Below, one piece after another: positions 7,293 to 47,644 of a DNA stretch of 54,255 bases; the first letter of the stretch is position 1; each line of letters opens with the position of its first letter. The stretch comes from Candidatus Uhrbacteria bacterium. Its GTDB lineage: Bacteria; Patescibacteriota; Patescibacteriia; UBA9934; GWF2-40-263. Position numbers and translations under genes: made by a program. A model generated the notes under the pieces. It was given only the letters and a program-made list of their open reading frames with translations. It made no database searches and had not been told where the DNA came from. The DNA is taken from positions 1 to 54,255 of the forward strand of contig CAIMOJ010000027.1 of the NCBI GenBank assembly GCA_903843045.1, written 5' to 3'.

Positions 7293-7317
7293 AAAAAGGC
7301 CGTGCAAGCAGCACGGC
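7291..7317 (-). terminator. Intrinsic terminator between convergent pyk and the 7345-7716 gene
   Basis: A7 run then GCCGTGC-aagca-GCACGGC. Confidence 0.7.
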
Positions 7318-7344
7318 GGGGAGAGACGTTCGTCCGGGGATCCG

Positions 7345-7716
7345 CTAGTGGGCGGGTCCCTTTGCGTTCGCGGCGGCGGCAGTGCGCGCCTCGAGCTCGG
7401 GCAGGACGAAGTTGAGGAGGTGGTGGATGGGGACGCTCGGCCAGGACAGCGCCTCTTCGTTCAGGCCGAGCGCGTCGGCGAGGACGAAGGCGCGGTGGAC
7501 CATGGCGTTGGCTTCGGAGCCCAGGTCTCCGATCCAGGCGCCGAGTTCGCGGAGCATGTCCGTCCGGGTCTTCGGGTTGAGACCATCGACTCCGTCGAGG
7601 ATCCGCTTGAACTGAAGGACGATCGGGAGCCGGCTTTCGCGGCGAATGTCCTCGAAGGACTTGGCTGGGCCGGCGTGGTGGACGGGGGTGGTGGGTAGGA
7701 CGGCGGGCTGAGGCAT
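7345..7716 (-). CDS. Hypothetical protein (123 aa)
   Basis: Fills the intergenic gap; own TTGACA-N17-TATTCT promoter and downstream terminator; no recognised domain. Confidence 0.6.
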   Translation of the reverse strand: MPQPAVLPTTPVHHAGPAKSFEDIRRESRLPIVLQFKRILDGVDGLNPKTRTDMLRELGAWIGDLGSEANAMVHRAFVLADALGLNEEALSWPSVPIHHLLNFVLPELEARTAAAANAKGPAH

Positions 7717-7783
7717 TGAGTCTCACTGATTGAGCGGGGGTTGTCTGCGCTGATGTCCAAGGCACGATGCTCTGAACACCGAC

Positions 7784-7812
7784 AGAATAGGCCGAGCCGG
7801 GCAGAATGTCAA
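7784..7812 (-). promoter_or_regulatory. Sigma70 promoter of the 7345-7716 gene
   Basis: TTGACA-N17-TATTCT; the -35 contains the TGA stop of the upstream gene. Confidence 0.7.
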
Positions 7813-9073
7813 TGGACAATTGATTTTCCTACCAGATGCCCGGCCGCCCATGACGCCTGGAGGTTGAAGCCGCCGGTGAACCCGTCCACGTCCAAAATCT
7901 CTCCGGCGAAGTACAGTCCGGGACAAATGCGCGATTCCATGGTCGTCGGGTCCACTTCGGAAAGGTCGACCCCGCCCGCGGTCACGAACTCGTCGCCGGC
8001 GCCGCGCTGGATGACGTGGAGCGGGATCGCCTTGAGCCACGCGGCCGTCCGGGCCATGTCCTTTTTGGCGACCTGGTTCGCGCTCTTTGTTTTGGAAATG
8101 CCAAGGTGGTCGACGACGATGTCGGCCAGGGACTTGGGGACGAGGAGGCCGAGGACGTTGTCGAACCGCTTGTTCGGGTTTGCCGTCGCGACCGTCTCGA
8201 CGCGGGCGCGGAGGGCGTCGAGCGTCTCGTCGGGGAACAGGTCGATAGCGATTTCAAGCGGATTGGCCGCGTCGTACGGCTCGAACGCGACGATGGAAGA
8301 GAGCGCGAACACCGCCGGGCCGCTGACGCCCTTGTGGGTGAAGAGGAACGGGCCGGTGAAGGAGGGGAGGGTCGAAGGGGCGGAGGGTCGAAGGTTCGAA
8401 GAGCCGCGGTTAGAAGAGATTGTGGCGCGCTCGAACGAGAGACCCGAGATTTCCTTTGGCCAGGTCTCGGACGTGAAGAATGCATTGAGGCTCGGAGCAA
8501 GCGCGGTGATCGTGTGTCCAAGCGCCGTGGCAAACGCATACCCGTCGCCGGTCGAACCCGTGTGTCGGTACGCCTGGCCGCCCGTCGTGAGGACGAGTTT
8601 GTCGGCGACGATCGGCTCGGGTGACTCCTTCGTAAAGATAAAAAATTCATCGCCGCGCTTTTCGACGCGGGTCGCGGAAGTTTTCAAAAGGATGCGGACG
8701 TTTGACAGCGCGAACAGTTCCTCGAACGCGCGGACGATGTCGTGGCCGTCGTCGGAGACGGGGAACACGCGGAGGTCGGCCTGCGTCTTGAGCGGGACGC
8801 CGTGCGACTCGAACCAGGCCTCGACCGCCTCGGGCGGGAAGGCGTACATGGCGGAGGTGAGAAACTTTCCCCCGCGCGGATATCTCGCGAGGACGGTCTT
8901 CACGTCGCGGATCCCGGTCGTGACGTTGCAGCGGCCGCCGCCGGAGATGATGACCTTCTTTCCGAGCCCGTCGTTGCGTTCGATCAAAAAGATTTCGATG
9001 GACGGATCGTCCTCGTGCAACGTCGCGGCGGCCATCAGCCCGGCCGCGCCCCCTCCGATGATCGCGACTCGCA

Positions 9074-9077
<4 letters not shown>
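7809..9077 (-). CDS. NAD(P)/FAD-dependent oxidoreductase, HI0933/YhiN/BaiN family (carries an in-frame repeat insertion)
   Basis: IIGGGAAG, GKKVIISGGGRCNVT, LFTHKGVSGP, VTAGGV, GEILDVDGFTGGFNLQ; ATGA overlap with ABC-F stop. Confidence 0.92.
8367..8409 (+). repeat. Octamer-unit repeat, solo arm in frame (antisense reading) within the HI0933 gene
   Basis: GAGGGTCG-AAGGGGCG-GAGGGTCG-AAGGTTCG-AAGAGCCG-CGG. Confidence 0.85.
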
Positions 9078-10825
<1,748 letters not shown>

Positions 10826-34442: not shown

Positions 34443-34467
34443 CGAAAACAGGCGTAAATGTTAGCAT
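34439..34467 (+). promoter_or_regulatory. Promoter firing into the 34476-34564 hairpin
   Basis: TTGACG-N17-TAGCAT with TG extension; the -35 contains the Wzz TGA stop. Confidence 0.6.
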
Positions 34468-34475
34468 AATGGCAC

Positions 34476-34564
34476 AAAAAGCCCATTCAGAGGGTCGGGA
34501 CCAGCGTTCGTGATGACTCCTCCTTATCGCGCTCGCAAGGCCCGGCTCTCTGAGTGGGCTTTTT
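34476..34564 (+). ncRNA. Candidate ~90-nt sRNA with anti-SD-like loop
   Basis: Promoter upstream; 17-bp plus 7-bp stem; loop contains CTCCTCCTTA; ends in T5. Confidence 0.5.
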
Positions 34565-34585
34565 GCGTTATTTCACCCAAACCCC

Positions 34586-34614
34586 TTGACACTTTCCTCC
34601 AAATGTGATATTCT
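34586..34614 (+). promoter_or_regulatory. Promoter of MopE-motif gene 1
   Basis: TTGACA-N17-TATTCT with TG extension; about 220-nt structured leader follows. Confidence 0.75.
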
Positions 34615-34838
34615 CCGACCTTGCTAATCGTTCTTTCCCGTTGCCTCGATTGGCCCGACGTCTCCCTGGCACACCTCCTCCTTGTGCCAGGATCGGACGC
34701 CGGACCAATCGACGCCGCGGGGAATCCTCTTCCGCACGTCAACAAACCCCGGTAACACGGGGTGCAGCGACGCGCGGGGATGGTCCTCGCACGTCAAACA
34801 CCCCGGTGCAAGCCGGAACCCCAGCCAGGAGATCAACC

Positions 34839-36233
34839 ATGACCCAGACCCTCAAGACCAACGGAGGCTCCATGAGCCAGATTTCTTTCCTCGCCCTCGT
34901 GGGCGTTCTCGTCAGCACCCCGGCGTTCGCCGTCACCCCCTGCGCCCCGGTCGCGCCCTGCAAGTCGGCCCCGGTCGTCGAGCCCCTCAAGGACTGCGGG
35001 GCCGCGAACGACGAGCTCTGCACCGAGGCGACGGACGTCGACAAGGACGCCTACTACAGCGACAGCAAGTCGCGCCTCGACTGCGACGACACCAAGGCGA
35101 CCGTCCACCCGACCGCGACCAGCGTGATCGGCGACGGCCTCGACAACGACTGCAGCGGCGACACCGACGACGAGGAGCTCGCCGCGGCGCTCATCGCGGC
35201 CGGCGGCGAAACCAGCCCCGCGGGCATCGCGCTCGCGAAGGACATCGACTCGTGCTGGAACAGCACGGTCGTCGGCGCGGAGGACGCGTACTGGTCCAAG
35301 GGGTCCAAGAAGCCCTGGACCTGCAACGGCCTGGCCGACGGCCTCTCGTTCGAGCGTGGAAAGGGTGTCCTGACCGAGACCCAGACCCACGACCTCGAGT
35401 CCGCCCGGCGCATCGCCGGCGACCGCGCGGTGGCCGCCAAGGCGAAGGCCGAGGCCGAAGCCGTGATCGCGGACGCGAAGGCGACGATGAAGGCCGACGT
35501 GGACGCCGACAAGGCGTACTTCGCGGAGCTGATCTCGCAGAGCGAGGCGACCGTTGTCGAGCTCAGCGCGAAGATCGACGCGTACGATGCCCGGCTCGCC
35601 CAGTTCGAGCTCGACGCGAAGCACGCGGCCTCCCTCCAGAAGGGGATCGACGCGCGGCAGAACGATGCCATCGGCGCGAACACCGCCGACATCGGCGACC
35701 TGCAGCGGCGTGGCGTCATCTTCGAGATCGGCGCCGGCGCCGGTTTCCTCGCCCAGCGCTCGCTGGTCGATGCGGACGGCACGGTCTACCGCAGCGGGAT
35801 GGTCGGCTTCGGCAACGTCGTCGCCAGCATCGGGTACGGGATCCCGAACGCCAGCCTCACCCTCGACCTGAGCTTCGGCGAAGGGTCGACGGGGAGCCTC
35901 GGCGGGACGGTCCCCGACACGGTCGCCTCGGCGGCGGTGGTCGGCCAGTACCGGCACGGCGACATGGCCATCGGTCCGATGCTCACGCTCAGCAGCAGCG
36001 CCACCGGCAACCCGCTGGACTCGGGCGTGAGCGGCTGGGGCCCGGGCATCGGTGCCGCGGCCTCCTGGTTCGCCCCGAACGAGAAGGGGCTGCGGATCGA
36101 GGTCAAGACCCACCTCACGGTCGGTCTCGAGAACTTCGGCACGGACACCAGCCTGACCACCAAGTACTGGGACTCCGGTCTCATGGGCGAGGGCGGCGTC
36201 ACCGTTCTCGTCGGTGGCGGTCCCCGCAAGTAG
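34839..36233 (+). CDS. Secreted protein: one MopE-type metal-binding motif, coiled coil, C-terminal beta-barrel-like domain
   Basis: DCDDTKATVHPTATSVIGDGLDNDCSG; signal peptide ending TPAFA; two in-frame SD-ATG starts (34839, 34872). Confidence 0.75.
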   Translation: MTQTLKTNGGSMSQISFLALVGVLVSTPAFAVTPCAPVAPCKSAPVVEPLKDCGAANDELCTEATDVDKDAYYSDSKSRLDCDDTKATVHPTATSVIGDGLDNDCSGDTDDEELAAALIAAGGETSPAGIALAKDIDSCWNSTVVGAEDAYWSKGSKKPWTCNGLADGLSFERGKGVLTETQTHDLESARRIAGDRAVAAKAKAEAEAVIADAKATMKADVDADKAYFAELISQSEATVVELSAKIDAYDARLAQFELDAKHAASLQKGIDARQNDAIGANTADIGDLQRRGVIFEIGAGAGFLAQRSLVDADGTVYRSGMVGFGNVVASIGYGIPNASLTLDLSFGEGSTGSLGGTVPDTVASAAVVGQYRHGDMAIGPMLTLSSSATGNPLDSGVSGWGPGIGAAASWFAPNEKGLRIEVKTHLTVGLENFGTDTSLTTKYWDSGLMGEGGVTVLVGGGPRK

Positions 36234-36262
36234 GCTCTCCGTGGGTACCCACTCCCACACCT

Positions 36263-36296
36263 CCCCGGCAGTTCATACTGTCGGGGATTTTTCTTT
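36263..36296 (+). terminator. Terminator of MopE-motif gene 1
   Basis: CCCCGGCAG-ttcata-CTGTCGGGG then T-rich run. Confidence 0.7.
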
Positions 36297-36312
36297 CGGG
36301 CTACGGCCCGAA

Positions 36313-36441
36313 GGCTGCGAATAACGTATGAGCTACATATCACACAAATTGTTACGTATTCCTACAAACCAGTGTAATATCAGCATCCGCTGCGATTCGT
36401 AGCAATACGTAGGATGTGCAGCTCATACGTTATTCGCAGCC
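36313..36441. repeat. AT-rich 129-bp element with perfect 22-bp terminal inverted repeats
   Basis: GGCTGCGAATAACGTATGAGCT (36313-34) is the exact reverse complement of 36420-41. Confidence 0.9.
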
Positions 36442-36450
36442 CGTTTTCCC

Positions 36451-36479
36451 TTGACAAATCTCACTATTCCTGCTACAGT
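36451..36479 (+). promoter_or_regulatory. Promoter of MopE-motif gene 2
   Basis: TTGACA-N17-TACAGT with TG extension. Confidence 0.75.
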
Positions 36480-36648
36480 ACGACCTTGCCAGAAATGACG
36501 CGCGAGACACTTGTCGAAAGGACATCAAACCTTTCGCCAGATGCCTCCCGCTTCTCGACGCAATCCCGCGTCTGAAAGTGGGTCCAGTCCGGCTTCCCAC
36601 AAGGGCCGGTTCCCAGCCCTGTGGGGCAACATCACCAAGGAGTCTCGA

Positions 36649-37389
36649 ATGCGCACACTGATCCTTTCCCCCCTGGTCCTCGCGGCCGTCGGCTGCAACC
36701 CTTCCGTCGTCGGCATCAAGCTCGATGACACCGGCTGCACCGGCTGCTCCGGCGACACCGACGCGGATACCGACACCGACACGGACACTGACGCCGACAG
36801 CGACGCGGACACCGACACGGGCACGGCGGACCCGAACGACGTCGACAACGACGGCGACGGTTACACCGAGAACGGCGGCGACTGCAACGACGCGGACGCC
36901 TCCGTCTGTCCCGGCGCGACCGACACCGCGGGTGACGGCATCGACCAGGACTGCAGCGGGGCCGACGCGTCCAGCTCGGATCCGTACGCGGACTACACCT
37001 GGGTCGACGGCGACAGCCTCTGCTTCTCCACGGACGGGTTCAACTTCCCGTACGACGAGGCCGCGGCCTACGCGGTCGGCTACGGCACCGGCATGGACTG
37101 GACCCTCAAGGCCAGCCACGCGGTCTCCCCGGTCGACAGCAGCGACTGCGTCGACACGAGCGCGTGGGAGTACGACACGTACACCATCACCCTGATCTCC
37201 TCGCTGCAGAGCGACGGGTCCCTCACGACCAGCTACGCCGACACCGGCGACTGGTGGGACAACTTCGACTTCTGCACGTCGGGCTTCCCGACGGCGCTGA
37301 GCTTCTGCACCGAGATGGAGGATGGCAACTACCTCGTCTCCGTCTCGAAGACGACGGAGGGCCTCGTCCCCGCGGGCGACGGCTCCTAG
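36649..37389 (+). CDS. Lipoprotein with DT/DA repeats and one MopE-type motif
   Basis: AAGGAG SD; lipobox LAAVGC; DTDADTDTDTDTDAD tract; DCNDADASVCPGATDTAGDGIDQDCSG. Confidence 0.8.
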   Translation: MRTLILSPLVLAAVGCNPSVVGIKLDDTGCTGCSGDTDADTDTDTDTDADSDADTDTGTADPNDVDNDGDGYTENGGDCNDADASVCPGATDTAGDGIDQDCSGADASSSDPYADYTWVDGDSLCFSTDGFNFPYDEAAAYAVGYGTGMDWTLKASHAVSPVDSSDCVDTSAWEYDTYTITLISSLQSDGSLTTSYADTGDWWDNFDFCTSGFPTALSFCTEMEDGNYLVSVSKTTEGLVPAGDGS

Positions 37390-37505
37390 TCGTCGCGGTT
37401 CACGGCGTTGAGCGCTAGGTAACAGGGACAACCGAACAACCGGCCCATCGGCATTCCGCCGATCCTCTCCAGCTCCCGGTGTGGGACGAAGGACTGCTTC
37501 CTAGC

Positions 37506-37540
37506 GCTCCTCGCCCACCGCGGGAGCTCTTTTTTATTTT
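37506..37540 (+). terminator. Terminator of MopE-motif gene 2
   Basis: GCTCC...GGAGC stem then T-rich run. Confidence 0.6.
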
Positions 37541-37553
37541 GCTACGGCAAAAT

Positions 37554-37721
37554 TTGCGAATAACGAATTAGTTACTTATTACACATATGCAACGTATTGG
37601 AACGAATGGGTACAAATTCGTCCGTTCGTTTTTTCGTTCTCGCGTCTTTCCCGTTCGAATACGTAGCATCTGTAGCAATACGTTGCATATGTGTAATAAG
37701 TAACTAATTCGTTATTCGCAA
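37554..37721. repeat. AT-rich 168-bp element with perfect 46-bp terminal inverted repeats
   Basis: 37554-37599 is the exact reverse complement of 37676-37721; 76-bp spacer. Confidence 0.93.
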
Positions 37722-37778
37722 CCCCGCCCCCTCCAACCCCTATCTTTTCTCCCCCCAACATGCTATCCTCCCCCAGTT

Positions 37779-40403
37779 ATGCCTCTCTTCCCCCCACAAC
37801 TCCTCCGAGAAATCGCAACCCCTGAGTCTTTTCGACGTGGGAAGACGTACGTGGAGGATGGCGCGGTTGAGAACGTGGAACTGTCGCGGACGGCTTCGGG
37901 GAAGATCAAGATCACGGGGACCGTCTACGGCAGCGTCTCGTATCACACGAGCATGATCGTGGACGGCGACGCGTTCGAGGTGGAGTCGTACGACTGCGAC
38001 TGCCCGTATTCGCAGGGCGGGGCGTGCAAGCACGTGGTCGCGCTCGGGCTCGTGGCTGCCCGTCGGTCCGTCGTGCCCGAGAAGGCGCCGCCGACGCGAA
38101 CGTCGAAACTGTCCGCGGCTGATGCCGATCTCCTTGAGACGCTCCGTGCCCACGCGGCAAAGCGAGGGGTCGTGCTCGACGACGTGAGCGCGGCGAAGGC
38201 GGCGAAGCACCTTGAGAAATTGCTGGTGACCCATGGGTCCGGAAACGTCTCGGCTTCGCGGAAGCCACCGCAGGAATACGTGCTCGGACGCATCGAGCTC
38301 TCGTTTTCGTATAACCGCGTGAAGGACCTGATCCTCGCAAAGGCCACGGCGGCATACGGTCCGCTTGTCTATCCGGTGGAGACCGGATGGCCGGTGGAGG
38401 GAGAAGAGGACGGAAGGCACGTGGCGCTGCGCGACTGGCACGAGGAACGGTCGGCACGCGTGGCGCTTGAGAACGAGGGATTTTTCTCGATGGGGAAGGG
38501 GACGTTCGAGCTGCCGGCCGAGGAGGCATTTGAGTTTTTGCGCGACGGGATGTCGCGGCTTTCGGAGACGTACGCGATTCTGGTCGACGAGGCATTCCAG
38601 TCATTGTCGACGATCCGCACGGCCGAGGTTACTTCGGACTGGGACTTTGGCGAGTCGTCGGGGACGGACTGGCTTTCGTTCTCCGTCGATTGGAAGTGCG
38701 GCGACCGTCCGCTGACCCCCGTCGAAATTTCCGGACTCGCTTCGGGCTACGGGAAATTCATCCGCGCGGCCGACGGGTCGTTCGTGGAAATTTCGAACCA
38801 GGATCTCATCCGCCGCATGGCCGAGGTGGCGGACGTCACTGGCCGCCAGACGATCACGCGCGCGCGGGCGATCGAGCTCGCGCTGCTTGCGGGCGAGACG
38901 TCCGGGATTCGAATGCGCGAGACGACCGAATCGATCGCGTCGTTCCTTCGCGATGCGAAGGAAGGGAAGCTGATCGGGGATCCGGAGATTCCAAAGGCGA
39001 TCGGCACGGTTCTTCGGCCGTACCAGCGCGATTCCGTCGCATGGGCATTGTTTTTGAGGAAGTATCGCTTCGGAGGGGTTCTGGCCGATGACATGGGCCT
39101 TGGAAAGACGCTTCAGGCACTTGCGATCATCTCGACGGAACGCGTGGCCGGGACGCCGCCGTCGCTTGTCATTTGTCCGAAGACGCTGATCTCGACATGG
39201 GTCGCGGAGTCCAAGCGGTTTACGCCGGACCTCAGGGTCGTCGCGGTCGAAGGAAATGCAAGGGAGCGCAAGGCCGTTCTCGAGCGCGCGGCGTCGACCG
39301 ACCTGTTTGTCACGTCGTACTCGCTTTTCCAGCGCGACGCGAAGCTGTATCAGAAGATCCCGATGCACTACGCGATTCTCGACGAGGCGCAGTATGTGAA
39401 GAACTCGAAGACCGCGACCGCGCTTGCCGTCAAGACACTGAAGGCAAGCCACCGGCTGGCGCTGACCGGAACCCCTCTGGAGAATGGCGTTCACGAGCTG
39501 TGGTCGCTCTTCGATTTCCTGATGCCGGGACTGCTTGGTGATCAGAAAATGTTCAAGACGACGTTCGAGCGGCCGATCAAGGAGTTCGGCGACAATGAGA
39601 GGCTTCAGACGTTGAAGCGTCGCGTGAAGCCGTTCCTCCTGCGTCGCACGAAGGAATCCGTGGCGCCCGAGCTGCCGCCGCGCATCGAGCAGAACGACTG
39701 GTGCGAGCTGACGGAGGTTCAGGCGTCGCTGTACGCGGAGGTGCTGGCTTCGACGCGACGCGACGTGTTCGAGGCGGTCGAGAAGAAGGGGTTCAACCGG
39801 TCGCGCATCGAAATTCTGGCCGCGCTGACGAGGCTTCGACAGGTGTGCAACCATCCGGCTCTGGTCGACAAGCGTTTGTCGAAGGGGGAGGACGTTTCGG
39901 GAAAATTGGCGTACGCGCTCGAGCTGCTTCGCGAGGCGGCCGACGGAGGCCACAAGGTCCTGTTGTTCAGCCAGTTCACGAGCATGCTCGACCTGATTCG
40001 TCCGGAACTCGACAAGATGGGAATCGGCCACGTGACGATCGAGGGAAAGACCAAGGATCGCGCCGGAGTCGTCGATCAATTTCGTAACGACCCGACCAAG
40101 CACGTTTTTCTTCTGTCTCTCCGCGCCGCCGGAACGGGCCTGACCCTCACCGAGGCCGATACCGTCGTCCTCTACGATCCTTGGTGGAACCCGATGGTCG
40201 AACGCCAGGCCATGGATCGCGCGCACCGCATCGGCCAGACCAAGTCCGTGAACGTCCACAAGCTGGTGACGAAGGGAACGATCGAGGAAAAGGTCCTTGC
40301 GCTCCAGGAAAAGAAGAAGGCGATCTTCGATGCGGTCGTTTCGGATTCCGCCGAGGGGTTGAAGGGTTTGACCTGGGAGGACGTGCAAGTACTTTTCGCT
40401 TAA
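37779..40403 (+). CDS. SWIM zinc finger plus SNF2-family helicase/ATPase
   Basis: CDCPYSQGGACKH (SWIM), LADDMGLGKT, ILDEAQYVKN, ALTGTPLEN, LFSQFT, AAGTGLTLT, QAMDRAHRIGQ; TGcTATCCT-N9-ATG. Confidence 0.93.
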   Translation: MPLFPPQLLREIATPESFRRGKTYVEDGAVENVELSRTASGKIKITGTVYGSVSYHTSMIVDGDAFEVESYDCDCPYSQGGACKHVVALGLVAARRSVVPEKAPPTRTSKLSAADADLLETLRAHAAKRGVVLDDVSAAKAAKHLEKLLVTHGSGNVSASRKPPQEYVLGRIELSFSYNRVKDLILAKATAAYGPLVYPVETGWPVEGEEDGRHVALRDWHEERSARVALENEGFFSMGKGTFELPAEEAFEFLRDGMSRLSETYAILVDEAFQSLSTIRTAEVTSDWDFGESSGTDWLSFSVDWKCGDRPLTPVEISGLASGYGKFIRAADGSFVEISNQDLIRRMAEVADVTGRQTITRARAIELALLAGETSGIRMRETTESIASFLRDAKEGKLIGDPEIPKAIGTVLRPYQRDSVAWALFLRKYRFGGVLADDMGLGKTLQALAIISTERVAGTPPSLVICPKTLISTWVAESKRFTPDLRVVAVEGNARERKAVLERAASTDLFVTSYSLFQRDAKLYQKIPMHYAILDEAQYVKNSKTATALAVKTLKASHRLALTGTPLENGVHELWSLFDFLMPGLLGDQKMFKTTFERPIKEFGDNERLQTLKRRVKPFLLRRTKESVAPELPPRIEQNDWCELTEVQASLYAEVLASTRRDVFEAVEKKGFNRSRIEILAALTRLRQVCNHPALVDKRLSKGEDVSGKLAYALELLREAADGGHKVLLFSQFTSMLDLIRPELDKMGIGHVTIEGKTKDRAGVVDQFRNDPTKHVFLLSLRAAGTGLTLTEADTVVLYDPWWNPMVERQAMDRAHRIGQTKSVNVHKLVTKGTIEEKVLALQEKKKAIFDAVVSDSAEGLKGLTWEDVQVLFA

Positions 40404-40429
40404 GTTAGCCATTTAATAAGGCGCGGGGA

Positions 40430-40458
40430 TTGACAAACCCGCGTTTTTATGATATCTT
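40430..40458 (+). promoter_or_regulatory. Promoter of MopE-motif gene 3
   Basis: TTGACA-N17-TATCTT with TG extension. Confidence 0.75.
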
Positions 40459-40596
40459 TGTCCACTAACCTGTTGCCGGGCTTGGGATCCAAACCATGGA
40501 TCTTATGCCTGGCCACATGGTGTGGTCAGCTGTGATTTTGTCAGAAACAAACGGTCTTTCGACCACCACGCCTGGAAACAGGCAAAGGAGCTAACC

Positions 40597-41982
40597 ATGC
40601 TCATCCTCCTCGCCCTTCTGGGCTGCGCCCCCTCCGTCATGCCCTCCAACAACGTCGTCGACACCGGGTCCGTCCCGAGTGACACCGGCACGGACACGGG
40701 CGCGACGAACGACAGTGACAACGACACCGGTTCCGACACGGCGACCGACAGCGGTACCGACTCCGCCGACAGCGGCGCCGGCACGGACACCGGCGCGGCG
40801 GACACCGACACGACCGACAGCGGCGGAACGGACAGCGGGTCCGACACCGGCGCGGCGGACACGGACACCGGCGTCGCCGACACGGACACCGGCACGGCGG
40901 ACACGGACAGCGGCGGAACGGACAGCGGGTCCGACACCGGCACGGTCGACACCGGCGTGGACTGCGGGACGTACGTCTCGAGCTGCGACGGGACCGTCGT
41001 GAGCTGGTGCGAGGGATCCGCGGTCCTCACGTACGACTGCGCGGACGCCGGCAGCTACGAGTGCAGCGATGCCTCGGGCACTGCCGAGTGCGTCTACGTC
41101 GAGACCGACGCGGACCTCGACGGCGTCACCGTCGAGGAAGGCGACTGCGACGACGCGGACGCCACGGTCTACCCCGGCGCCCCAGAGATCGCCGACGACG
41201 GCGTCGACCAGGACTGCTCGGGCGCCGACGAGGTCACGCTCGAGGACGACGTCGACGGCGACGGGTACGGCGTGTCCGAGGACTGCGACGACACGAACCC
41301 CTCGGTCAATCCGGGCGCCGTCGAGACCTGCAACGGGATCGACGACGACTGCGACGCGAGCATCGACGAGGGCCTCACCGGCACCTGGTATGCGGACGCC
41401 GACGGCGACGCGTTCGGAGATGCGGACACGTTCGTGACCGGGGCCTGCTCGGCGGCGAGCGGCTACGTCGCGGACAGCTCCGATTGCGACGACTCCGAGA
41501 TCGACGTCCACCCGGGCGCGGCCGAGATCCCGGACGACGGGATCGACCAGGACTGCGACGGCAGCGACGCCACCATGGCCGAGCTGCAGGACGTTGCGGT
41601 CTGCTCGTCCGGCCAGGAAGCCTGCTTCCGGGACGTCGATGGGAACGGGTCGTACGAGACCCTGCTGATGGACGAGGCCCAGATCTACGGGATGCCGGCG
41701 ACCGCCGAAGTCTACGAGAACGGGTCGGGCACCGGGTGCGGGCTCAGCGGCGACAGCGTCGGCAGCAATGCCGCCGGCTACTACGTCGTCTCGTTCGAAG
41801 GGCTCTCGAGCTGCACCTCCCAGGTGTCGGTCGTGAGCACCAGCGGGTCCTCGACCTACTGGTGGCAGAACTACACGTTCTGTACCGACGGTAGCGACTC
41901 CCAGGGGATCTGCGTGGCCACGGGCACGTTCGACTTCCTGATCGAGATCGACTACCGGAGCTCGACGGGCCTGCGGTTCTAG
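40597..41982 (+). CDS. Lipoprotein with DTG/DSG tract and three MopE-type motifs
   Basis: AAGGAG SD; MLILLALLGC lipobox; three DCDD-x-PGA-E-x-DG-D-DC units. Confidence 0.82.
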   Translation: MLILLALLGCAPSVMPSNNVVDTGSVPSDTGTDTGATNDSDNDTGSDTATDSGTDSADSGAGTDTGAADTDTTDSGGTDSGSDTGAADTDTGVADTDTGTADTDSGGTDSGSDTGTVDTGVDCGTYVSSCDGTVVSWCEGSAVLTYDCADAGSYECSDASGTAECVYVETDADLDGVTVEEGDCDDADATVYPGAPEIADDGVDQDCSGADEVTLEDDVDGDGYGVSEDCDDTNPSVNPGAVETCNGIDDDCDASIDEGLTGTWYADADGDAFGDADTFVTGACSAASGYVADSSDCDDSEIDVHPGAAEIPDDGIDQDCDGSDATMAELQDVAVCSSGQEACFRDVDGNGSYETLLMDEAQIYGMPATAEVYENGSGTGCGLSGDSVGSNAAGYYVVSFEGLSSCTSQVSVVSTSGSSTYWWQNYTFCTDGSDSQGICVATGTFDFLIEIDYRSSTGLRF

Positions 41983-42049
41983 CCCGCACGAAAGGCGTCC
42001 GCATGATGGGACGCAGCGAAGGCAGGCTAAGGAGAGGACAACCACTCTG

Positions 42050-42111
42050 CGCTCCCGACAGGGAAGAGCCGCTCGCTGCGCTCCCGTCCTGTCGGGAGCG
42101 TCTTTCTTTTT
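42050..42111 (+). terminator. Terminator of MopE-motif gene 3
   Basis: CGCTCCCGACAGG / CCTGTCGGGAGCG 13-bp stem then T-rich run. Confidence 0.7.
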
Positions 42112-42124
42112 CCTGGCGTTTCTA

Positions 42125-42153
42125 TTGACAAAGTTCCAGGATCATGATATTAA
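42125..42153 (+). promoter_or_regulatory. Promoter of MopE-motif gene 4
   Basis: TTGACA-N17-TATTAA with TG extension. Confidence 0.65.
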
Positions 42154-42271
42154 TACCACTCGTTTTGGCTGGGAAACCGTGCCAAACGCGAGAAATCAGG
42201 CCCGTTCTTCGGACAATATCACCGGCTGCGGGCCTGACCGTAGCTTCTTCACCCCCCTCACGGAGGATCCA

Positions 42272-43960
42272 ATGCGGATCTATTTCTTGGCTCAGCGTTG
42301 TTTCGCCCTGCTCGTACTCCTGTTGTTTTCCGGCTGCTACTTCATCGGAAATCCCGACGGCGACACGCTGTCCGGGCTGGCCGACTGCAACCCGAACTCG
42401 GACGTTGCGTGCGACAAGGTCGACACCGACGCGGACACCGACGCCGACGCGGACACCGACGCCGATTCCGACGCGGACACCGACACCGACACCAACGTCG
42501 AGACCGGCGACACCGGGGAGACCGGCGACACGGACACGGGCGTTCCGTGCGAGACGTCGACCTGGCATCCGGACTCGGACGGCGACGGCTACGGCGACCC
42601 CGCGACCAGCGCGGAGGCCTGCGACCAACCCGACGGCTACGTGGCCGACGGCACGGACTGCGACGACGCCAGCGCCGACACCTACCCCGGCGCGGCCGAG
42701 CGGTGCGACCTGCAGGACAACGACTGCGACGGCCTGGCCGACGAGAACCTCTCGGAGTCCTGGTACTCCGACTCGGACAACGACGGGTTCGGCGACGAGT
42801 TCGCGAACGTCGACGTGGCCTGCGACGGAACGACCGGCGACCTCGTGGCCGCGCGTGACAGCGACGGCGACGGCGCGGCCGACTTCGACTGCGACGACAG
42901 CAACGCCACGGTCAACCCGCTCGCCGAAGAGGTGTGCGACGAGGCCGACAACGACTGCGACGGCTCGATCGACGAGTCCGGCGCGTTCGGCGAGACGACC
43001 TGGTACGCGGACGCCGACGGCGACGGCTACGGAGCCGGGGCCATGGTGGCCGAGGCCTGCGACGGCGCCTACACGCGCCCCGCCAACGTGTCGAGCCTCG
43101 ACACGGACTGCGACGACGCGCTGAGCGCGACCAACCCGGGCGCGGCTGAGATCTGCGATGGCGCCGACAACGACTGCGACGGCGCGGTGCCGAGCGACGA
43201 GGCGGACCTCGATGGCGACGGCTACAACGTCTGCGCCGGCCTGGACTGCGACGATACATCCGCGGACGCCTACCCGGGCGCCCACGAGAGCTGCGACGGC
43301 GCCGACAACGACTGCGACGGCACCGTCGACGAGAGCGACGCGAGCGACGTGGCCACCTGGTACGTCGACGTCGACGGCGACGGCTACGGCGACGCGGGCA
43401 CGAGCTTCGTCTCGTGCGACGCGCCGATCGGCTACGTGGCCGACGCCAGCGACTGCGATGACTCGGACGCCGCGGTCAACCCCGGTGCGCACGAGGTCTG
43501 CAACGAGATCGACGACGACTGCGACGGCGACGTCGACGTCGCGGCCGAGGATGCCACGGTGTGGTCCACGGACCTCGACGGCGACGGCTACGGTGACGAC
43601 ACCTACGCCAGCTGGCTTGCCTCGTGCGAACAGCCCGACGGCTACGTGGCCGACTTCTCGGACTGCGACGACTCGGACGCGGCGGTCAGCCCGAACGCGG
43701 CCGAGGTGTACGCCAACCTCGTGGACGACGACTGCAACGGGATCGTCGACGACAGCGGGCTCACCTGCTTCCCGGATGCCGACAACGACACGTACGGCGC
43801 CCCGACCGGCGGGATCTACGAGCCCACCGGCGTGTGCGGTACCGCGGGCTACGTCCCTCGGGACAGCGACTGCGACGACACCAACGCCACCACGAACCCC
43901 TCCCGCGCGGAGGTCTACGGCGACGGCGTCGACAACAACTGCGACGGCAGCACGACCTAA
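42272..43960 (+). CDS. Lipoprotein with seven MopE-type motifs and WYxDxDGDGYG units
   Basis: GGAGG SD; lipobox LFSGC; DTDADTDAD tract; seven DCDD...DC(D/N)G units. Confidence 0.85.
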   Translation: MRIYFLAQRCFALLVLLLFSGCYFIGNPDGDTLSGLADCNPNSDVACDKVDTDADTDADADTDADSDADTDTDTNVETGDTGETGDTDTGVPCETSTWHPDSDGDGYGDPATSAEACDQPDGYVADGTDCDDASADTYPGAAERCDLQDNDCDGLADENLSESWYSDSDNDGFGDEFANVDVACDGTTGDLVAARDSDGDGAADFDCDDSNATVNPLAEEVCDEADNDCDGSIDESGAFGETTWYADADGDGYGAGAMVAEACDGAYTRPANVSSLDTDCDDALSATNPGAAEICDGADNDCDGAVPSDEADLDGDGYNVCAGLDCDDTSADAYPGAHESCDGADNDCDGTVDESDASDVATWYVDVDGDGYGDAGTSFVSCDAPIGYVADASDCDDSDAAVNPGAHEVCNEIDDDCDGDVDVAAEDATVWSTDLDGDGYGDDTYASWLASCEQPDGYVADFSDCDDSDAAVSPNAAEVYANLVDDDCNGIVDDSGLTCFPDADNDTYGAPTGGIYEPTGVCGTAGYVPRDSDCDDTNATTNPSRAEVYGDGVDNNCDGSTT

Positions 43961-43973
43961 GCGGTCACTCCCT

Positions 43974-44005
43974 CCGATCGGCACCCTGCCGGTCGGTTTT
44001 TCTTT
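43974..44005 (+). terminator. Terminator of MopE-motif gene 4
   Basis: CCGATCGGCA / TGCCGGTCGG then T run. Confidence 0.7.
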
Positions 44006-44020
44006 GGCCCGGTCGATCGC

Positions 44021-44049
44021 TTGACACGAATTCAATCCTGTGGCATCAT
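44021..44049 (+). promoter_or_regulatory. Promoter of MopE-motif gene 5
   Basis: TTGACA-N17-CATCAT. Confidence 0.55.
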
Positions 44050-44126
44050 TCCCGCTCCTTCACGTGACTGCCCGGATAAGCCGGCTTTTGCGCGTCGGAG
44101 ACCACCAGACAAAAGGCAAAGACAAA

Positions 44127-45683
44127 ATGCTCAAGACGCTCCTCCTTCCGCTGACCATCGCGCTCGCGCTCACCGGTTGCAACGCCTCGGTCGCCCCCGC
44201 CTCCAGCGACGACAACATCGTGCCCGTCTCCGGCGACATGGGCCCCGACGTCGACGGCGACGGCTACGGCTCGGTCGTCGACTGCAACGACGACGACGTC
44301 AACGTCAACCCCGGCGAGCGGGAGACCATCGGCAACGGGATCGACGACGACTGCGACGGCGACGTCGACTGCGACGACAGCGAGGTGCCGATGACCGACT
44401 ACGGTCTCGACGCCGACCGCGACGGGTACTTCGACGACTTCGACGGCGACGGCGCCGTGGACGTGGTCAAGATGTGCGACGACACGGACGAGAACGCGGC
44501 GAAGATCTCCGCGATGACCGGCGGTTCCGGCGACGTCGAGAGCTTCGACCCGATCGTCTACAGCGGCGACCCCTTCACGGGCTACGTGCTCCCCGACGCC
44601 GACTGCGACGACGCGGACGCCGCCGTCAACCCGATGGCCTCCGAGGTCTGCAACGGGATCGACGACGACTGCGACGGCTCGATCGACGACGGCGCGGACC
44701 TGTCCACCTACTACTGGGACGGGGACATGGACGGCTTCGGCAACGCGAGCATCAGCGCGGACGCCTGCGAGCCGGGCGAAGGCTGGGTGCTCGACAGCAC
44801 CGACTGCGACGACGCGGACGCGACGGTCTACCCCGAGGCCCCCGAGCTCTGCGACGAGCAGGCCAACGACTGCCTGACGGCCGACACCTGGATGCCCGCC
44901 GACGAGACGGATCTCATGGGCACCTGGTACGCCGACGGCGACACCGACGGCTACGGCGACGCGAGCATGCCGACCTCGGCCTGCGCGCAGCCCGAGGGCA
45001 CCGTGGCCGGCGACACCGACTGCGACGACGCCGAATGGGCCATCAACCCCGGCGCCGACGAGCTCTGCGACACGATCGACAACAACTGCGACGGATCGAT
45101 CGACGGCACGGACTCGGTTGACCAGGTCACCCGGTACCGCGACCACGACGGTGACCTGTACGGCGATGAGACCTTCACCGCCACGAGCTGCAACGCGCCG
45201 CTCGGCTACATCGACACGAACGGCGACTGCGACGACAACGCGGCCACCACCTACCCGGGCGCTCCCGAGCTCATGAACGGCATCGACGACAACTGCAACA
45301 CGACCATCGACGATGGCGCGACCTGCAGCATCGAGATCGAGCTGTTCACCGGCGACGCGGGCACCGCGACCATCGACGGCACGGTCAGCAACAACACGGC
45401 CCTCGACGGCAACTGGCAGCCGATGGGCGTCGACGGGGTCAGCGTGTCGAGCACCTCGCTCGGCGGCGACGACTGGTACTACGACGTCATGCTCTCCGAC
45501 TGCCTCGGCTCCGGCGACGACATCCGCGTCGACGCCGCGTTCTCCGACGGCACCTGGGGCTGCGACAGCGTCGGCACCCCGTCCGGCAGCCTCCGCGGCT
45601 GGCAGGACGGCTCGCCCCTCAGCGTCGCCTACTCGGCCGACGACGCCGACGGACACTGCGTCCTCGTCGTGACGAACCCCTAG
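44127..45683 (+). CDS. Lipoprotein with five MopE-type motifs and a C-terminal beta-sandwich-like domain
   Basis: Lipobox ALTGC; five DC(D/N)D...DC units; followed by CCGGCC/GGCCGG-T6 terminator at 45699-45736. Confidence 0.82.
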   Translation: MLKTLLLPLTIALALTGCNASVAPASSDDNIVPVSGDMGPDVDGDGYGSVVDCNDDDVNVNPGERETIGNGIDDDCDGDVDCDDSEVPMTDYGLDADRDGYFDDFDGDGAVDVVKMCDDTDENAAKISAMTGGSGDVESFDPIVYSGDPFTGYVLPDADCDDADAAVNPMASEVCNGIDDDCDGSIDDGADLSTYYWDGDMDGFGNASISADACEPGEGWVLDSTDCDDADATVYPEAPELCDEQANDCLTADTWMPADETDLMGTWYADGDTDGYGDASMPTSACAQPEGTVAGDTDCDDAEWAINPGADELCDTIDNNCDGSIDGTDSVDQVTRYRDHDGDLYGDETFTATSCNAPLGYIDTNGDCDDNAATTYPGAPELMNGIDDNCNTTIDDGATCSIEIELFTGDAGTATIDGTVSNNTALDGNWQPMGVDGVSVSSTSLGGDDWYYDVMLSDCLGSGDDIRVDAAFSDGTWGCDSVGTPSGSLRGWQDGSPLSVAYSADDADGHCVLVVTNP

Positions 45684-45752: not shown

Positions 45753-47231
45753 ATGCTCGTGCTTTTTCTCATCGCCGCCCTCGGCTTCCTCATCCTCACC
45801 TTTTTTCGCCCCCTCACCACCCTCGCGATCCTCGCCCTCTACCTCCCGTTCGAATCCGTCCTCCTCAAGCTCGCGCCCGACGAGATCTACGTCTACGCGC
45901 GCTTTTTCTCCGAGGGTCTCATCTACGTCCTCGCCGCGGTCGTCATCTGGCGCGCCCTGACGGGCACCATTCGCCTCCGCTCGACGCAGGCCGACCTTCC
46001 GTTCATCCTGTTTCTCGTCATCCTCCTCGCCTCCGTCGCCATCAACGCCGTCTCGCCGACGATCGCGATTCTTGGCACGCGCCAGATCATCCGGTTCATC
46101 CTCGTGTTTTTTATCGCCGTCCAGCTGAAGCCGACCCGCGACTACGTCCGCAATCTCACGCTTGCCCTGTTCGCGGTCGTCGGCCTCGAGTCTGTCCTCG
46201 GCATCGTCCAGTCGCTCTCCGGCGGATCGCTCGACCCGCTGCTCCTTCCGTCCGACGCGCATTCGCTCGGCGAGGTGACGCTGACCGGCGGCGTCGACGA
46301 GTTCTGGGAGCCGGGGTCGCGAGTGTTCGCGACGCTTGGGCGATATGATCGGCTTGGGAATTTCCTCTATTTCTTTTTGGCATTGGCGGTCGGATTTGCG
46401 TACGAGTTCTTTTTTATGCGTCGAGGGTCCGCGCCAATCTTGGAGAGAGGATCTTCCTGGCGCGCGGAGATCATCGCGCTGTTCGCCGTCGCCATCCCGA
46501 CGCTCATCCTCACCTACTCCCGCGCCTCGTGGTTCGCGTTCCTCCTTGCGTTCCTTTTCGTCGCCATCTGGATCAAGCGCGACCGCCGCGTGATGCTCGC
46601 CGTCGTGACCGTCATCGTCGGGGTTGTCGCCTACGTCGGAATCACAGGCCTGAACGTCCGCTACATCACCGAGGCGCCCGGACAGACGCTCGTGGAGCGA
46701 TTCTATGAGACGTTCAGCTACGCCCGCTGGCGCGGCGAATACTACGGCCTTGGACGCGTCTACTGGATGGTCCAGACCCCGCTCACCGTCGTGGCCGCGT
46801 CGCCGCTCTTCGGCTTCGGTCCCGGCCAGTTCGGCGGGGGAGCGGTCGTGGCGCTTGGCAACACGAAGGTGTACGAGCAGCTCGGCCTTCCGTTCGGCGT
46901 CTTCGGCACCGACGGGATCATCGACAACAACTGGTTCTCGCTCTGGGGCGAGACAGGCTGCCTCGGGATCTTCTTCTTCCTATGGATGTACCTCGGCCTG
47001 ATCGTCCACTGCGTCCGCGTATACCGACAAAGCAACGATCCGTTCGTCCGCGCCCTCTCGATCGGCGTCGCCGCCGCAATGCTCGGCGTCGCCATGAACG
47101 CGTTTTTGTCCACGGTGTTTGAGATCAGAACGCTCGCGTTCTACGTATGGATGTACGCGGGGTTCGTGGTGGTGCTGGGGGAAGGGGAGAATAGGGTTCC
47201 GAGGGGCGAAGGTTCGAAGAGCCTCGGGTAA
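45753..47231 (+). CDS. O-antigen ligase/Wzy_C family membrane protein
   Basis: RVFATLG, LTYSRASW, PLFGFGPGQF, IDNNWFSLWGETGCLG; many TMs; TGtTATACT-N8-ATG; last ~10 codons derive from the repeat arm. Confidence 0.82.
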   Translation: MLVLFLIAALGFLILTFFRPLTTLAILALYLPFESVLLKLAPDEIYVYARFFSEGLIYVLAAVVIWRALTGTIRLRSTQADLPFILFLVILLASVAINAVSPTIAILGTRQIIRFILVFFIAVQLKPTRDYVRNLTLALFAVVGLESVLGIVQSLSGGSLDPLLLPSDAHSLGEVTLTGGVDEFWEPGSRVFATLGRYDRLGNFLYFFLALAVGFAYEFFFMRRGSAPILERGSSWRAEIIALFAVAIPTLILTYSRASWFAFLLAFLFVAIWIKRDRRVMLAVVTVIVGVVAYVGITGLNVRYITEAPGQTLVERFYETFSYARWRGEYYGLGRVYWMVQTPLTVVAASPLFGFGPGQFGGGAVVALGNTKVYEQLGLPFGVFGTDGIIDNNWFSLWGETGCLGIFFFLWMYLGLIVHCVRVYRQSNDPFVRALSIGVAAAMLGVAMNAFLSTVFEIRTLAFYVWMYAGFVVVLGEGENRVPRGEGSKSLG

Positions 47232-47644
47232 CGATATGCTGTTTACCTATAAGGATCTGACTGTTTGGAACAAGGCCGTGGAGTTGGCTGATATTGTCTA
47301 TAAACTGACGAGGTCTTTTCCAACGGAGGAGAAGTGCGGGCTTGTTTCTCAAATGCGAAGATCCGCCGTCTCAATTCCGTCGAATATTGCCGAGGGGCGT
47401 CTGCGAGGCTCCGACAAGTCTTGTCGAAATTTTCTTCTCATTAGCTTCGGTTCCGCAGGAGAACTCGATACGCAGATCCAAATCGCAAAACGGATTCAGG
47501 AAACAGCGAGCCTTGACTTTCGTGTCGCCGAATCTCTCTTGGATGAAATTCTTCGAATGCTCAACCGCATGATCGAACAGTTGTCTGCGGCAGAGCACAC
47601 AAACCAATAAGCCCTCTTCTTGGCTCTTCGAACCTTCGCCCCTC
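47201..47644. mobile_element. IVS-like element: four-helix-bundle gene enclosed by perfect 23-bp inverted repeats
   Basis: GAGGGGCGAAGGTTCGAAGAGCC (47201-23) and its exact reverse complement (47622-44); mobility is inferred, no recombinase present. Confidence 0.65.
47236..47610 (+). CDS. Four helix bundle protein (23S rRNA IVS protein / TIGR02436-like, Avd-related)
   Basis: YKDLTVWNKA, FPTEEK, LVSQMRRSAVSIPSNIAEG, SAGELDTQI; visibly more AT-rich than its neighbours. Confidence 0.92.
   Translation: MLFTYKDLTVWNKAVELADIVYKLTRSFPTEEKCGLVSQMRRSAVSIPSNIAEGRLRGSDKSCRNFLLISFGSAGELDTQIQIAKRIQETASLDFRVAESLLDEILRMLNRMIEQLSAAEHTNQ

Follow-up and report, generated by a model that had tools for sequence, protein, structure and literature searches.

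The locus described here raises the question of how a cluster of repeat-bearing surface-protein genes came to lie in the small genome of a Candidate Phyla Radiation (CPR) bacterium, whether borrowed from another lineage or its own, and what the encoded proteins might do. The window, that is, the whole stretch of DNA analyzed, is the 54,255-nucleotide contig CAIMOJ010000027.1 (C27) of assembly GCA_903843045.1, from a Candidatus Uhrbacteria bacterium. Between positions 34839 and 45683 it carries five same-strand genes, named here g1 to g5, whose products contain 1, 1, 3, 7 and 5 stretches of the motif of Pfam family PF11617; these counts, first given in a preliminary description of the DNA, were identical in the Pfam scan, in which all five proteins passed the gathering score of 27 bits (31.2-193 bits). 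A six-frame search located 17 motifs at 35079-45314 and gave zero matches in 14 of 14 control genomes, so that the cluster is far beyond chance. NCBIfam had no match for any of the five proteins. The preliminary description had taken the genes for horizontally acquired or host-mimicking ones, hinting at a myxobacterial host or prey. Our analysis leads elsewhere: g1 to g5 are probably native genes passed on by vertical descent, and belong to a family of secreted, acidic proteins with Cys/Asp repeats that has expanded throughout the Uhrbacteria order.

That the genome belongs to the CPR was correctly recognized beforehand. It amounts to 1.28 Mb in 76 contigs, 96% complete and with ~62% GC, to which C27 conforms, and both the nearest homologues and the syntenic contig carry the name Candidatus Uhrbacteria. 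For g5 and g1 the closest homologues (85% and 77%, respectively) bear the annotation Candidatus Uhrbacteria bacterium, the syntenic reference contig is that of Candidatus Uhrbacteria isolate ELA555, and NCBI places the name in the Patescibacteria/Parcubacteria group.

Distribution and probable descent of the repeat family within the order

The motif was found in 144 of the 162 genomes and in 54 of the 55 genera of the order, typically at 15-45 motifs per ~1 Mb, and in 39 of 41 close relatives. Across the phylum sample only 28 of 301 genomes have it (9%, versus 89% in the order), and other classes of the phylum also hold it. The genome studied here has four further motif genes on other contigs, all of them encoding lipoproteins. 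Since almost every genus of the order carries the family, it would not have been borrowed from myxobacteria and offers no clue to a host; the suggested myxobacterial host or prey gives way to an order-wide native family.

The gene order Wzz-g1-g2-SNF2-g3-g4-g5-WzyC-GT4 is identical in the sister species in three independent assemblies (ENA, NCBI and JGI). Within the population of the window itself, the exact g5 protein is present, with the same flanks, on at least 18 contigs that were assembled independently and come from several samples; where their DNA was available, these contigs match the window at 99.9-100% identity over 15-20 kb. Within the genus, g1 occurs in eight of nine genomes, beside motif genes, and g2 throughout, with g2-type proteins extending across the family. 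No mobility genes were found at the borders of the cluster, whose flanks are the Wzz and the Wzy_C/GT4 envelope genes. This pattern essentially favours vertical inheritance over a myxobacterial origin.

Two AT-rich palindromic elements flank g2 (36313-36441 and 37554-37721), the second of which recurs, complete or in part, in dozens of copies spread over at least 15 other contigs (C26, C45, C40, C76 and others). The sister species has g2 and its promoter and neither element. A mobile cassette made of g2 between the palindromes was therefore considered and rejected; the elements look like insertions of the type of miniature inverted-repeat transposable elements, later than g2.

The base composition of the five genes deserves separate consideration. 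Their GC is 0.68-0.70 and their third-position GC (GC3) 0.94-0.97, whereas the genome averages 0.81 and its 99th percentile stands at 0.925, and their tetranucleotide distance falls in the top 2-5% of windows. Genome-wide, GC3 spans 0.70-0.97. Other genes at the top of the GC3 range encode proteins whose first residues, judged by eye, resemble those of RpoC, RecA, trigger factor, GyrA, L1, NusA and Frr, and the preference for C-ending codons at four-fold sites (0.60-0.70) is common to EF-Tu-, L6-, L10- and Ndk-like genes, also recognized by eye. The bias covers the lineage-specific non-repeat parts of g1, g2 and g5 as well, and the motif genes on the other contigs are of average composition. 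In relatives of lower GC, the GC3 of the motif genes is correspondingly lower (0.64-0.88). Judging from these patterns, GC3 seems to follow the level of expression in the genome of this CPR bacterium, and the composition of g1 to g5 may be an expression-linked codon bias, not a foreign signature; by the same token the five genes are probably highly expressed.

Vertical descent within the order is compatible with an older event, as regards everything that followed it: the motif module could have entered the ancestor of the order once, from a motif-rich lineage such as the Myxococcota, and then expanded vertically and fused to lineage-specific domains. We consider such an ancient transfer possible, though doubtful. 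The patchiness of the motif in the phylum, set against its near ubiquity in the order, is in its favour, as is the correlation of relative synonymous codon usage (RSCU) with one metagenome-assembled genome (MAG) of Myxococcota (r = 0.93). The motif is indeed abundant in Myxococcota-type genomes, as had been stated at the outset: 635-760 first-look candidates were counted in three MAGs of 5-8 Mb, labelled Myxococcota, Deltaproteobacteria and proteobacterium, a biased sample reached from matches, with 150 candidates scored per genome. Also in its favour, Uhrbacteria units interleave with those of Myxococcota, Bacteroidota and Pseudomonadota in a tree built from 179 units of these four groups, with almost no clustering by phylum (54 label changes versus 63 +/- 5 in shuffles). 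The units are, however, too short and too constrained to carry signal, and units of 66 residues give neither direction nor donor. A full-length homologue search with g5 returned mostly repeat-driven matches (35-49% identity, many phyla), which for that reason are silent on origin. Further arguments against the transfer are that the motif is also found in Bacteroidota, Pseudomonadota, other Patescibacteria and the eukaryotic acyloxyacyl hydrolase (AOAH) and teneurins, that other classes of the phylum carry it, and that the codon make-up of motif genes follows each host genome. A PF11617-repeat protein with 39% identity to the g5 repeats is encoded on contig CAZKEV010000014.1, labelled as an uncultured Methanomicrobiales archaeon MAG, and means either that a bacterial contig was misbinned or that the motif occurs in archaea as well.

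Recent horizontal acquisition from a myxobacterial host or prey, or mimicry of it, is very unlikely on the sequence evidence. The GC and GC3 above the genome mean, the tetranucleotide distance and the great abundance of the motif in Myxococcota-type MAGs would fit such an origin, but (i) synteny of the cluster is kept in the sister species, with g1 and g2 extending across the genus; (ii) the motif is present in nearly all genera of the order, and the non-repeat domains occur only in Uhrbacteria; (iii) the C-ending bias is common to native genes and to the lineage-specific domains, and motif genes take on the codon make-up of their own genome; (iv) a native SNF2 gene splits the cluster, and (v) mobility genes are lacking at the borders and the palindromes around g2 are absent from the sister species that keeps g2. 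A chimeric join or a foreign contig is a practically negligible explanation: the MAG is in 76 contigs, assembly of repeats is difficult and two assemblies have a gap in g4, but the same joins appear on both sides in those at least 18 contigs and in the NCBI, ENA and JGI assemblies of the sister species, the GC of the contig equals that of the genome, motif genes lie on four other contigs, and genomes of the order in 1-4 contigs carry 21-36 motifs.

Gene layout, transcription signals and predicted export

All features of the cluster lie on the plus strand. The first gene, g1 (34839-36233), encodes a 464-aa secreted protein with a Sec-type signal (AFA|V) and no lipobox, a Cys-rich N-terminus, one PF11617 motif (35079-35171), a coiled-coil-like middle rich in Ala, Lys and Glu, and a Gly-rich C-terminal region of beta type. 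In the 246-aa lipoprotein of g2 (36649-37389) the lipobox AAVGC is followed by a DT/DA tract and a single motif (36880-36966), and the protein ends in a beta-sandwich (36970-37386) called here the 'WWDN' domain. Between g2 and g3 the cluster is split by a gene outside the family, assigned through Pfam to an SNF2/SWIM helicase (37779-40403). The product of g3 (40597-41982), a 461-aa lipoprotein, consists of the LLGC box, a linker of ~130 aa rich in D, T, G and S, three motifs (41143-41568) and, at the C-terminus, a distant relative of the g2 domain. The 562-aa lipoprotein of g4 (42272-43960) carries LFSGC, a DT/DA tract and seven motifs (42656-43954), without a C-terminal domain, and the 518-aa lipoprotein of g5 (44127-45683) carries ALTGC, five motifs (44280-45314) and a 118-aa C-terminal domain without fold assignment. 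The DT/DA tracts that had been attributed to the cluster are therefore a feature of g2, g3 and g4, and are missing from g1 and g5. Envelope genes surround the cluster, Wzz on one side and Wzy_C/GT4 on the other. A small gene of the four-helix-bundle (23S rRNA IVP) type lies between Wzy_C and GT4 (47119-47610); it is called in one sister-species assembly (L008) and not in another (L007), which reflects either presence/absence or gene-calling variation.

Each gene has its own TTGACA-N17 promoter, as previously noted. The scan gave five sites of this type with a TG-extended -10 element, versus 0.9 expected, among them those at 34586, 36451, 40430 and 44021, upstream of g1, g2, g3 and g5; the promoter of g4, found by eye, was missed automatically because its -10 hexamer ends in A. 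The g1 promoter, TTGACA-N17-TGATATTCT, is followed by a structured leader of ~225 nt (34586-34838). That of g2, TTGACA-N17-TGCTACAGT, which is kept in the sister species, precedes a leader with an AAGGAG Shine-Dalgarno sequence (36451-36648). The promoter and leader of g3, TTGACA-N17-TGATATCTT, occupy 40430-40596; those of g4, TTGACA-N17-TATTAA with a GGAGGA Shine-Dalgarno sequence, 42125-42271, and those of g5, TTGACA-N17-TGGCATCAT with a short leader and a weak Shine-Dalgarno sequence, 44021-44126. The four clear ribosome-binding sites reported earlier were recovered as AGGAG-type sequences before g1 to g4. A terminator behind every gene had also been claimed, and this applies in part: strong intrinsic terminators follow g1 (36262-36297, an 11-bp stem and then a T-run), g3 (42078-42111) and g4 (43974-44006), the one after g2 (37510) is weak, and the terminator scan found none after g5, whose transcript may read through into the Wzy_C gene.

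In comparison with the sister species the promoter and leader regions are better conserved than the coding sequences. The wzz-g1 intergenic region (34443-34838) is 97% identical, versus 82% for the g1 coding sequence, while synonymous sites in neighbouring genes differ by 0.2-0.45; the snf2-g3 intergenic region (40404-40596) is 100% identical. The 5' leader of g1 (34615-34845) forms a long and very stable predicted hairpin system (-102 kcal/mol, z = -5.5) of which the genome holds no second copy. The leader also gave a sub-threshold Rfam match to the mraW RNA (30.4 bits versus a gathering score of 50, E = 0.005).

That the products are surface proteins, as had been proposed, agrees with their predicted export and, for most of them, lipid anchoring. 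Lipoboxes had been noted in four of the five, and this assignment stands: tested with a pattern of the PROSITE PS51257 type, g2, g4 and g5 are canonical, and g3 has LLGC behind a short signal. The genome encodes Lgt (PF01790 on C39, E 5e-52), LspA (PF01252 on C62, E 1e-20), VKOR and an open reading frame of DsbA-like type with a CPFC motif (C62, 229-726, recognized by eye only), so that both lipoprotein maturation and extracytoplasmic disulfide formation are encoded. Omp85 (PF01103) had no match in the 96%-complete genome, which implies a cell with a single membrane. Residues 301-464 of g1 (35739-36230), located behind the coiled-coil-like segment, are Gly-rich with apparent alternating beta-strands and have no Pfam match; this architecture recalls the anchor domains of diderm surface proteins, though the genome is without Omp85, for which reason an outer-membrane beta-barrel was ruled out. 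The proteins are acidic, with a pI of ~4.0-4.5, Asp and Glu making up 20-27% of g2 to g5 and 13% of g1.

Repeat modules and C-terminal domains

The repeat unit comprises ~66 residues with the consensus WY.D.DGDGYG...C..P.GYV....DCDD....NPGA.E.C.G.DDDCDG and four conserved cysteines. Its D, C, D, P, E, D and C columns are invariant in 12 units of the cluster itself and in 65 homologues. In the AlphaFold2 model of g5 the repeats form short hairpins with loop-rich segments behind them, predicted with high confidence (pLDDT above 90); the C-terminal domain is predicted with low confidence (pLDDT below 50). From the DxDxDG-type loops and the four cysteines, the most economical reading is that the modules are stabilized by Ca2+ and bonded by disulfides.

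The Pfam name of the family suggests copper. In a sequence search of the PDB with the unit profile, only MopE* and mammalian AOAH were matched, and the motif aligns to residues 6-44 of MopE* (13-44 with the profile). The N-terminus of MopE* is flexible or disordered, the crystal model beginning at Gly47, and its Cu(I) ligands are His132, His203 and kynurenine-130 (PMC3423442). As the motif corresponds to this disordered N-terminus and lies off the copper site, the Pfam name is no evidence for copper binding, and the copper binding suggested in the preliminary description finds no support. No part of the MopE core, the Cu/Ca core that CorA and MopE have in common, was matched by g1 to g5. Capture of copper or another metal by these proteins, after the manner of MopE/CorA in methanotrophs, is hence highly improbable: the family name and an acidic, Cys-rich composition that could bind cations are its support, and the aligned stretch, the position of the ligands and the unmatched core all oppose it. 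By sequence, g1 to g5 belong to the PF11617 repeat class and not to the MopE/CorA family of copper proteins, and the label "Cu-binding" is unfit for inferring copper chemistry.

Comparison with the known carriers of the motif defines what is particular to the proteins described here. The 'MopE-related' proteins of Myxococcota and other lineages have the same 30-residue core, DCDD...PGA.E.C.G.DDDC.G, within a four-Cys unit of ~66 residues with a DxDGDGYG loop, and likewise carry tandem units in secreted proteins. Many of them are 600-900 aa long, some fused to lectin C, fibrinogen C or other domains, whereas those of the cluster are 246-562 aa lipoproteins of a single-membrane CPR bacterium of 1.3 Mb, with DT/DA linkers and C-terminal domains restricted to Uhrbacteria. 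MopE/CorA (PDB 2VOV) are also surface-associated or secreted and have one motif copy, at the N-terminus of MopE*, but their copper site and beta-core find no match in g1 to g5. The start of the large subunit of mammalian AOAH (PDB 5W78, 5W7A-F) is matched by the unit profile (RGYHWRGRDCNDSD..YPG....D..QDSNCNG, E ~1e-3); there, in contrast, the motif is a single copy inside a eukaryotic lipase. The Cys-rich core of teneurin (C.DG.DND.DG..DC.D.DC) is related to the PF11617 consensus in a published alignment (PMC3278476), yet teneurin is a eukaryotic cell-adhesion receptor with a single copy, and the PDB sequence and fold searches did not pick it up.

Of the C-terminal domains, that of g2 is the most informative. 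Its AlphaFold2 model is a beta-sandwich with pLDDT above 90. It had no Pfam match even at E = 10, and a Foldseek search of the g2 model against the PDB and BFVD gave no match at E <0.1. The best matches are sandwiches of the carbohydrate-binding module (CBM) families CBM48/CBM20, such as the glycogen-binding domain of AMPK beta and a feruloyl-esterase CBM48, with E 0.15-0.4, a probability of 0.7-0.8 (maximum 0.82) and a TM score of 0.6-0.67 on 80-residue targets; with an identity of 7-9% they constitute a lead, not membership. Within the order the domain is confined to its own family (23 of 151 genomes). Its profile recovered 36 clusters among 1.84 billion representatives, in which the domain is always C-terminal and the named members are all Ca. 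Uhrbacteria.

The same domain closes a second protein of the genome. Contig C40 encodes on its minus strand (6977-9262) a 761-aa lipoprotein composed of a Peptidase_M23 domain, a long middle, one PF11617 motif and a 'WWDN' C-domain 51% identical to that of g2. This protein has orthologs in several Uhrbacteria genera, and its M23 architecture is common to many of the 36 members of the domain family. It also contains a stretch resembling a thrombospondin-type-3 repeat (DTDGDGIADDADNCP...). Given its place at the end of a peptidoglycan peptidase of the M23 type, the likely ligand of the domain is a cell-wall component or a glycan. Some orthologs are lipoproteins with a linker and the C-domain but without any PF11617 motif; the motif would thus be the modular spacer and the C-domain the constant business end. 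For g1, a homologue search with region 120-464 found only the Uhrbacteria ortholog, and the non-repeat part is confined to its own genus plus one weak match in the family.

Divergence of the proteins and their proposed role

Relative to the sister species, the cluster stands out from its surroundings in its rate of change. The ratio of nonsynonymous to synonymous divergence (dN/dS) is 0.49 for g1 (76% protein identity), 0.67 for g2 (66-68%), 0.40 for g3 (96%), 0.27 for g4 and 0.63 for g5 (85%), the highest regional value being that of the g2 C-domain (0.79). The best BLAST segment of g4 is 73% identical; counted over all aligned columns its identity reaches 92%, and the alignment has 52 indel columns. 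The neighbours are 94-99% identical, with dN/dS of 0.02-0.08 in the housekeeping genes (Wzz, SNF2, Wzy, GT4); the SNF2/SWIM helicase, which serves as the yardstick of native composition, is 98.6% identical with a dN/dS of 0.04. Two adjacent genes for putative surface proteins, on the minus strand, have intermediate values (0.19-0.24). The Cys residues are mostly conserved, and within the genus the identity of g1 drops to 31-37%.

Synonymous divergence is a mosaic, from 0.05 in g3 through 0.21 in the SNF2 gene and 0.34 in g1 to 0.53 in the 5' part of g4, which suggests recombination between related strains; the g3 segment, including the 40404-40596 spacer, looks like a recent recombinational exchange between the two species. 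The g4 orthologs are 522, 554 and 568 aa long. In two assemblies of the population (L023, at 9283-9382, and L024, in the same place) a 100-N scaffold gap lies inside the g4 repeats, and this gap accounts for a 216-bp difference first considered as a repeat-number variant. The window and two further assemblies (L022 and L025) agree with one another across those repeats.

Taking into account the predicted export, the repeat modules and the M23 link, we propose the following model. Each gene would be transcribed from its own near-consensus promoter of the sigma-70 type, and the products would be exported by Sec. Four of them would be acylated by Lgt at the lipobox Cys and cut by LspA, which would leave them anchored at the outer surface of the single membrane. 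The staphylococcal Ser-Asp repeat adhesins (Clf/Sdr) project a binding domain from the surface on a stalk of acidic dipeptide repeats, and by analogy with them the low-complexity DT/DA tracts may act as flexible spacers that span the wall. The analogy is functional and without sequence homology, given that an SD repeat and an LPXTG sortase anchor are used there and DT/DA and a lipid anchor here. In the tandem modules of ~66 residues, the four cysteines would likely form two disulfides, made by the DsbA-like/VKOR pair, and the acidic DxDxDG-type loops most likely bind Ca2+, the modules together forming a stiff stalk. This stalk would display variable C-terminal domains, represented in g2 and, distantly, in g3 by the Uhrbacteria-restricted beta-sandwich, for which the fusion to an M23 peptidase makes a cell-wall or glycan ligand probable.

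The fast divergence fits surface exposure under either diversifying selection or relaxed constraint. Together with the presumed high expression and the M23 link it fits surface recognition, in which the proteins would bind a cell-wall or glycan ligand borne by a partner, by a host or by the cell's own envelope. Possible settings are, for example, adhesion to a matrix or to the cells of a host or partner, and evasion of phage or grazers. A more specific and clearly more tentative version would see in the cluster a hypervariable Uhrbacteria attachment kit, in which stalks stiffened by Ca2+ and locked by disulfides would carry the Uhrbacteria-only 'WWDN' domain as a new module for recognizing cell wall or glycan, which would also target a surface M23 peptidase to open the wall of a partner.

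Several observations weigh against native, recognition-type surface proteins. Fast evolution is uneven, g3 being 96% conserved, and an elevated dN/dS that stays below 1 is compatible with relaxed constraint as well as with diversifying selection. A Foldseek search of the PDB with the g5 model gave no solved counterpart for the repeat modules (none at E <0.1), and the CBM-like resemblance of the g2 C-domain is non-significant (E 0.15-0.4). The signal peptide of g3 is atypically short, with only 9 residues before the Cys, if the start is the Shine-Dalgarno-backed ATG at 40597; an alternative start is GTG at 40522. Finally, the RSCU of the cluster correlates better with the Myxococcota MAG (r = 0.93) than with native high-GC3 genes (0.89); this gap is small and we would expect it also from two GC-rich codon sets.

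The main functional rival of specific recognition is a bulk polyanionic coat, in which the proteins would form a cation-buffering or hydration layer, or an S-layer-like scaffold, and not specific adhesins. The low pI and high content of acidic residues, the presumed high expression and the position of the genes among Wzz, Wzy_C and GT4 envelope genes are all consistent with it. A bulk coat, however, needs no distinct fast-evolving C-domains and no gene-specific architectures, and the domain held in common with an M23 peptidase points to a specific ligand; we therefore regard the coat as unlikely.

NCBI already labels the Uhrbacteria homologues "putative metal-binding motif-containing protein". 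In the literature we found no paper on the motif in CPR bacteria or Uhrbacteria, and none testing its function. As far as the literature was searched, the new elements are the order-wide expansion, the contrast in rate with the neighbouring genes and the Uhrbacteria-restricted C-domain common to an M23 peptidase. Lineage-specific surface proteins are of an ordinary kind, documented here where such data are scarce.

As to the organism, these results remove a tempting inference about a myxobacterial host and put a trait of the lineage in its place: in almost all genera of the Uhrbacteria order an appreciable part of a genome of ~1 Mb is given over to PF11617 lipoproteins, and proteins of the g1 to g5 type rank with the fastest-evolving of the genome and probably with the most highly expressed. 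The per-species divergence of g1, g2 and g5 could mark strain-level surface variation in CPR populations of groundwater and lakes. The rare, confidently folding C-domain common to the M23 wall peptidase is a concrete target for binding assays. Were the cluster an attachment kit, variation of its domains between species would track the range of hosts or partners, and host recognition in this lineage, which is uncultured, would become accessible through sequence for the first time.

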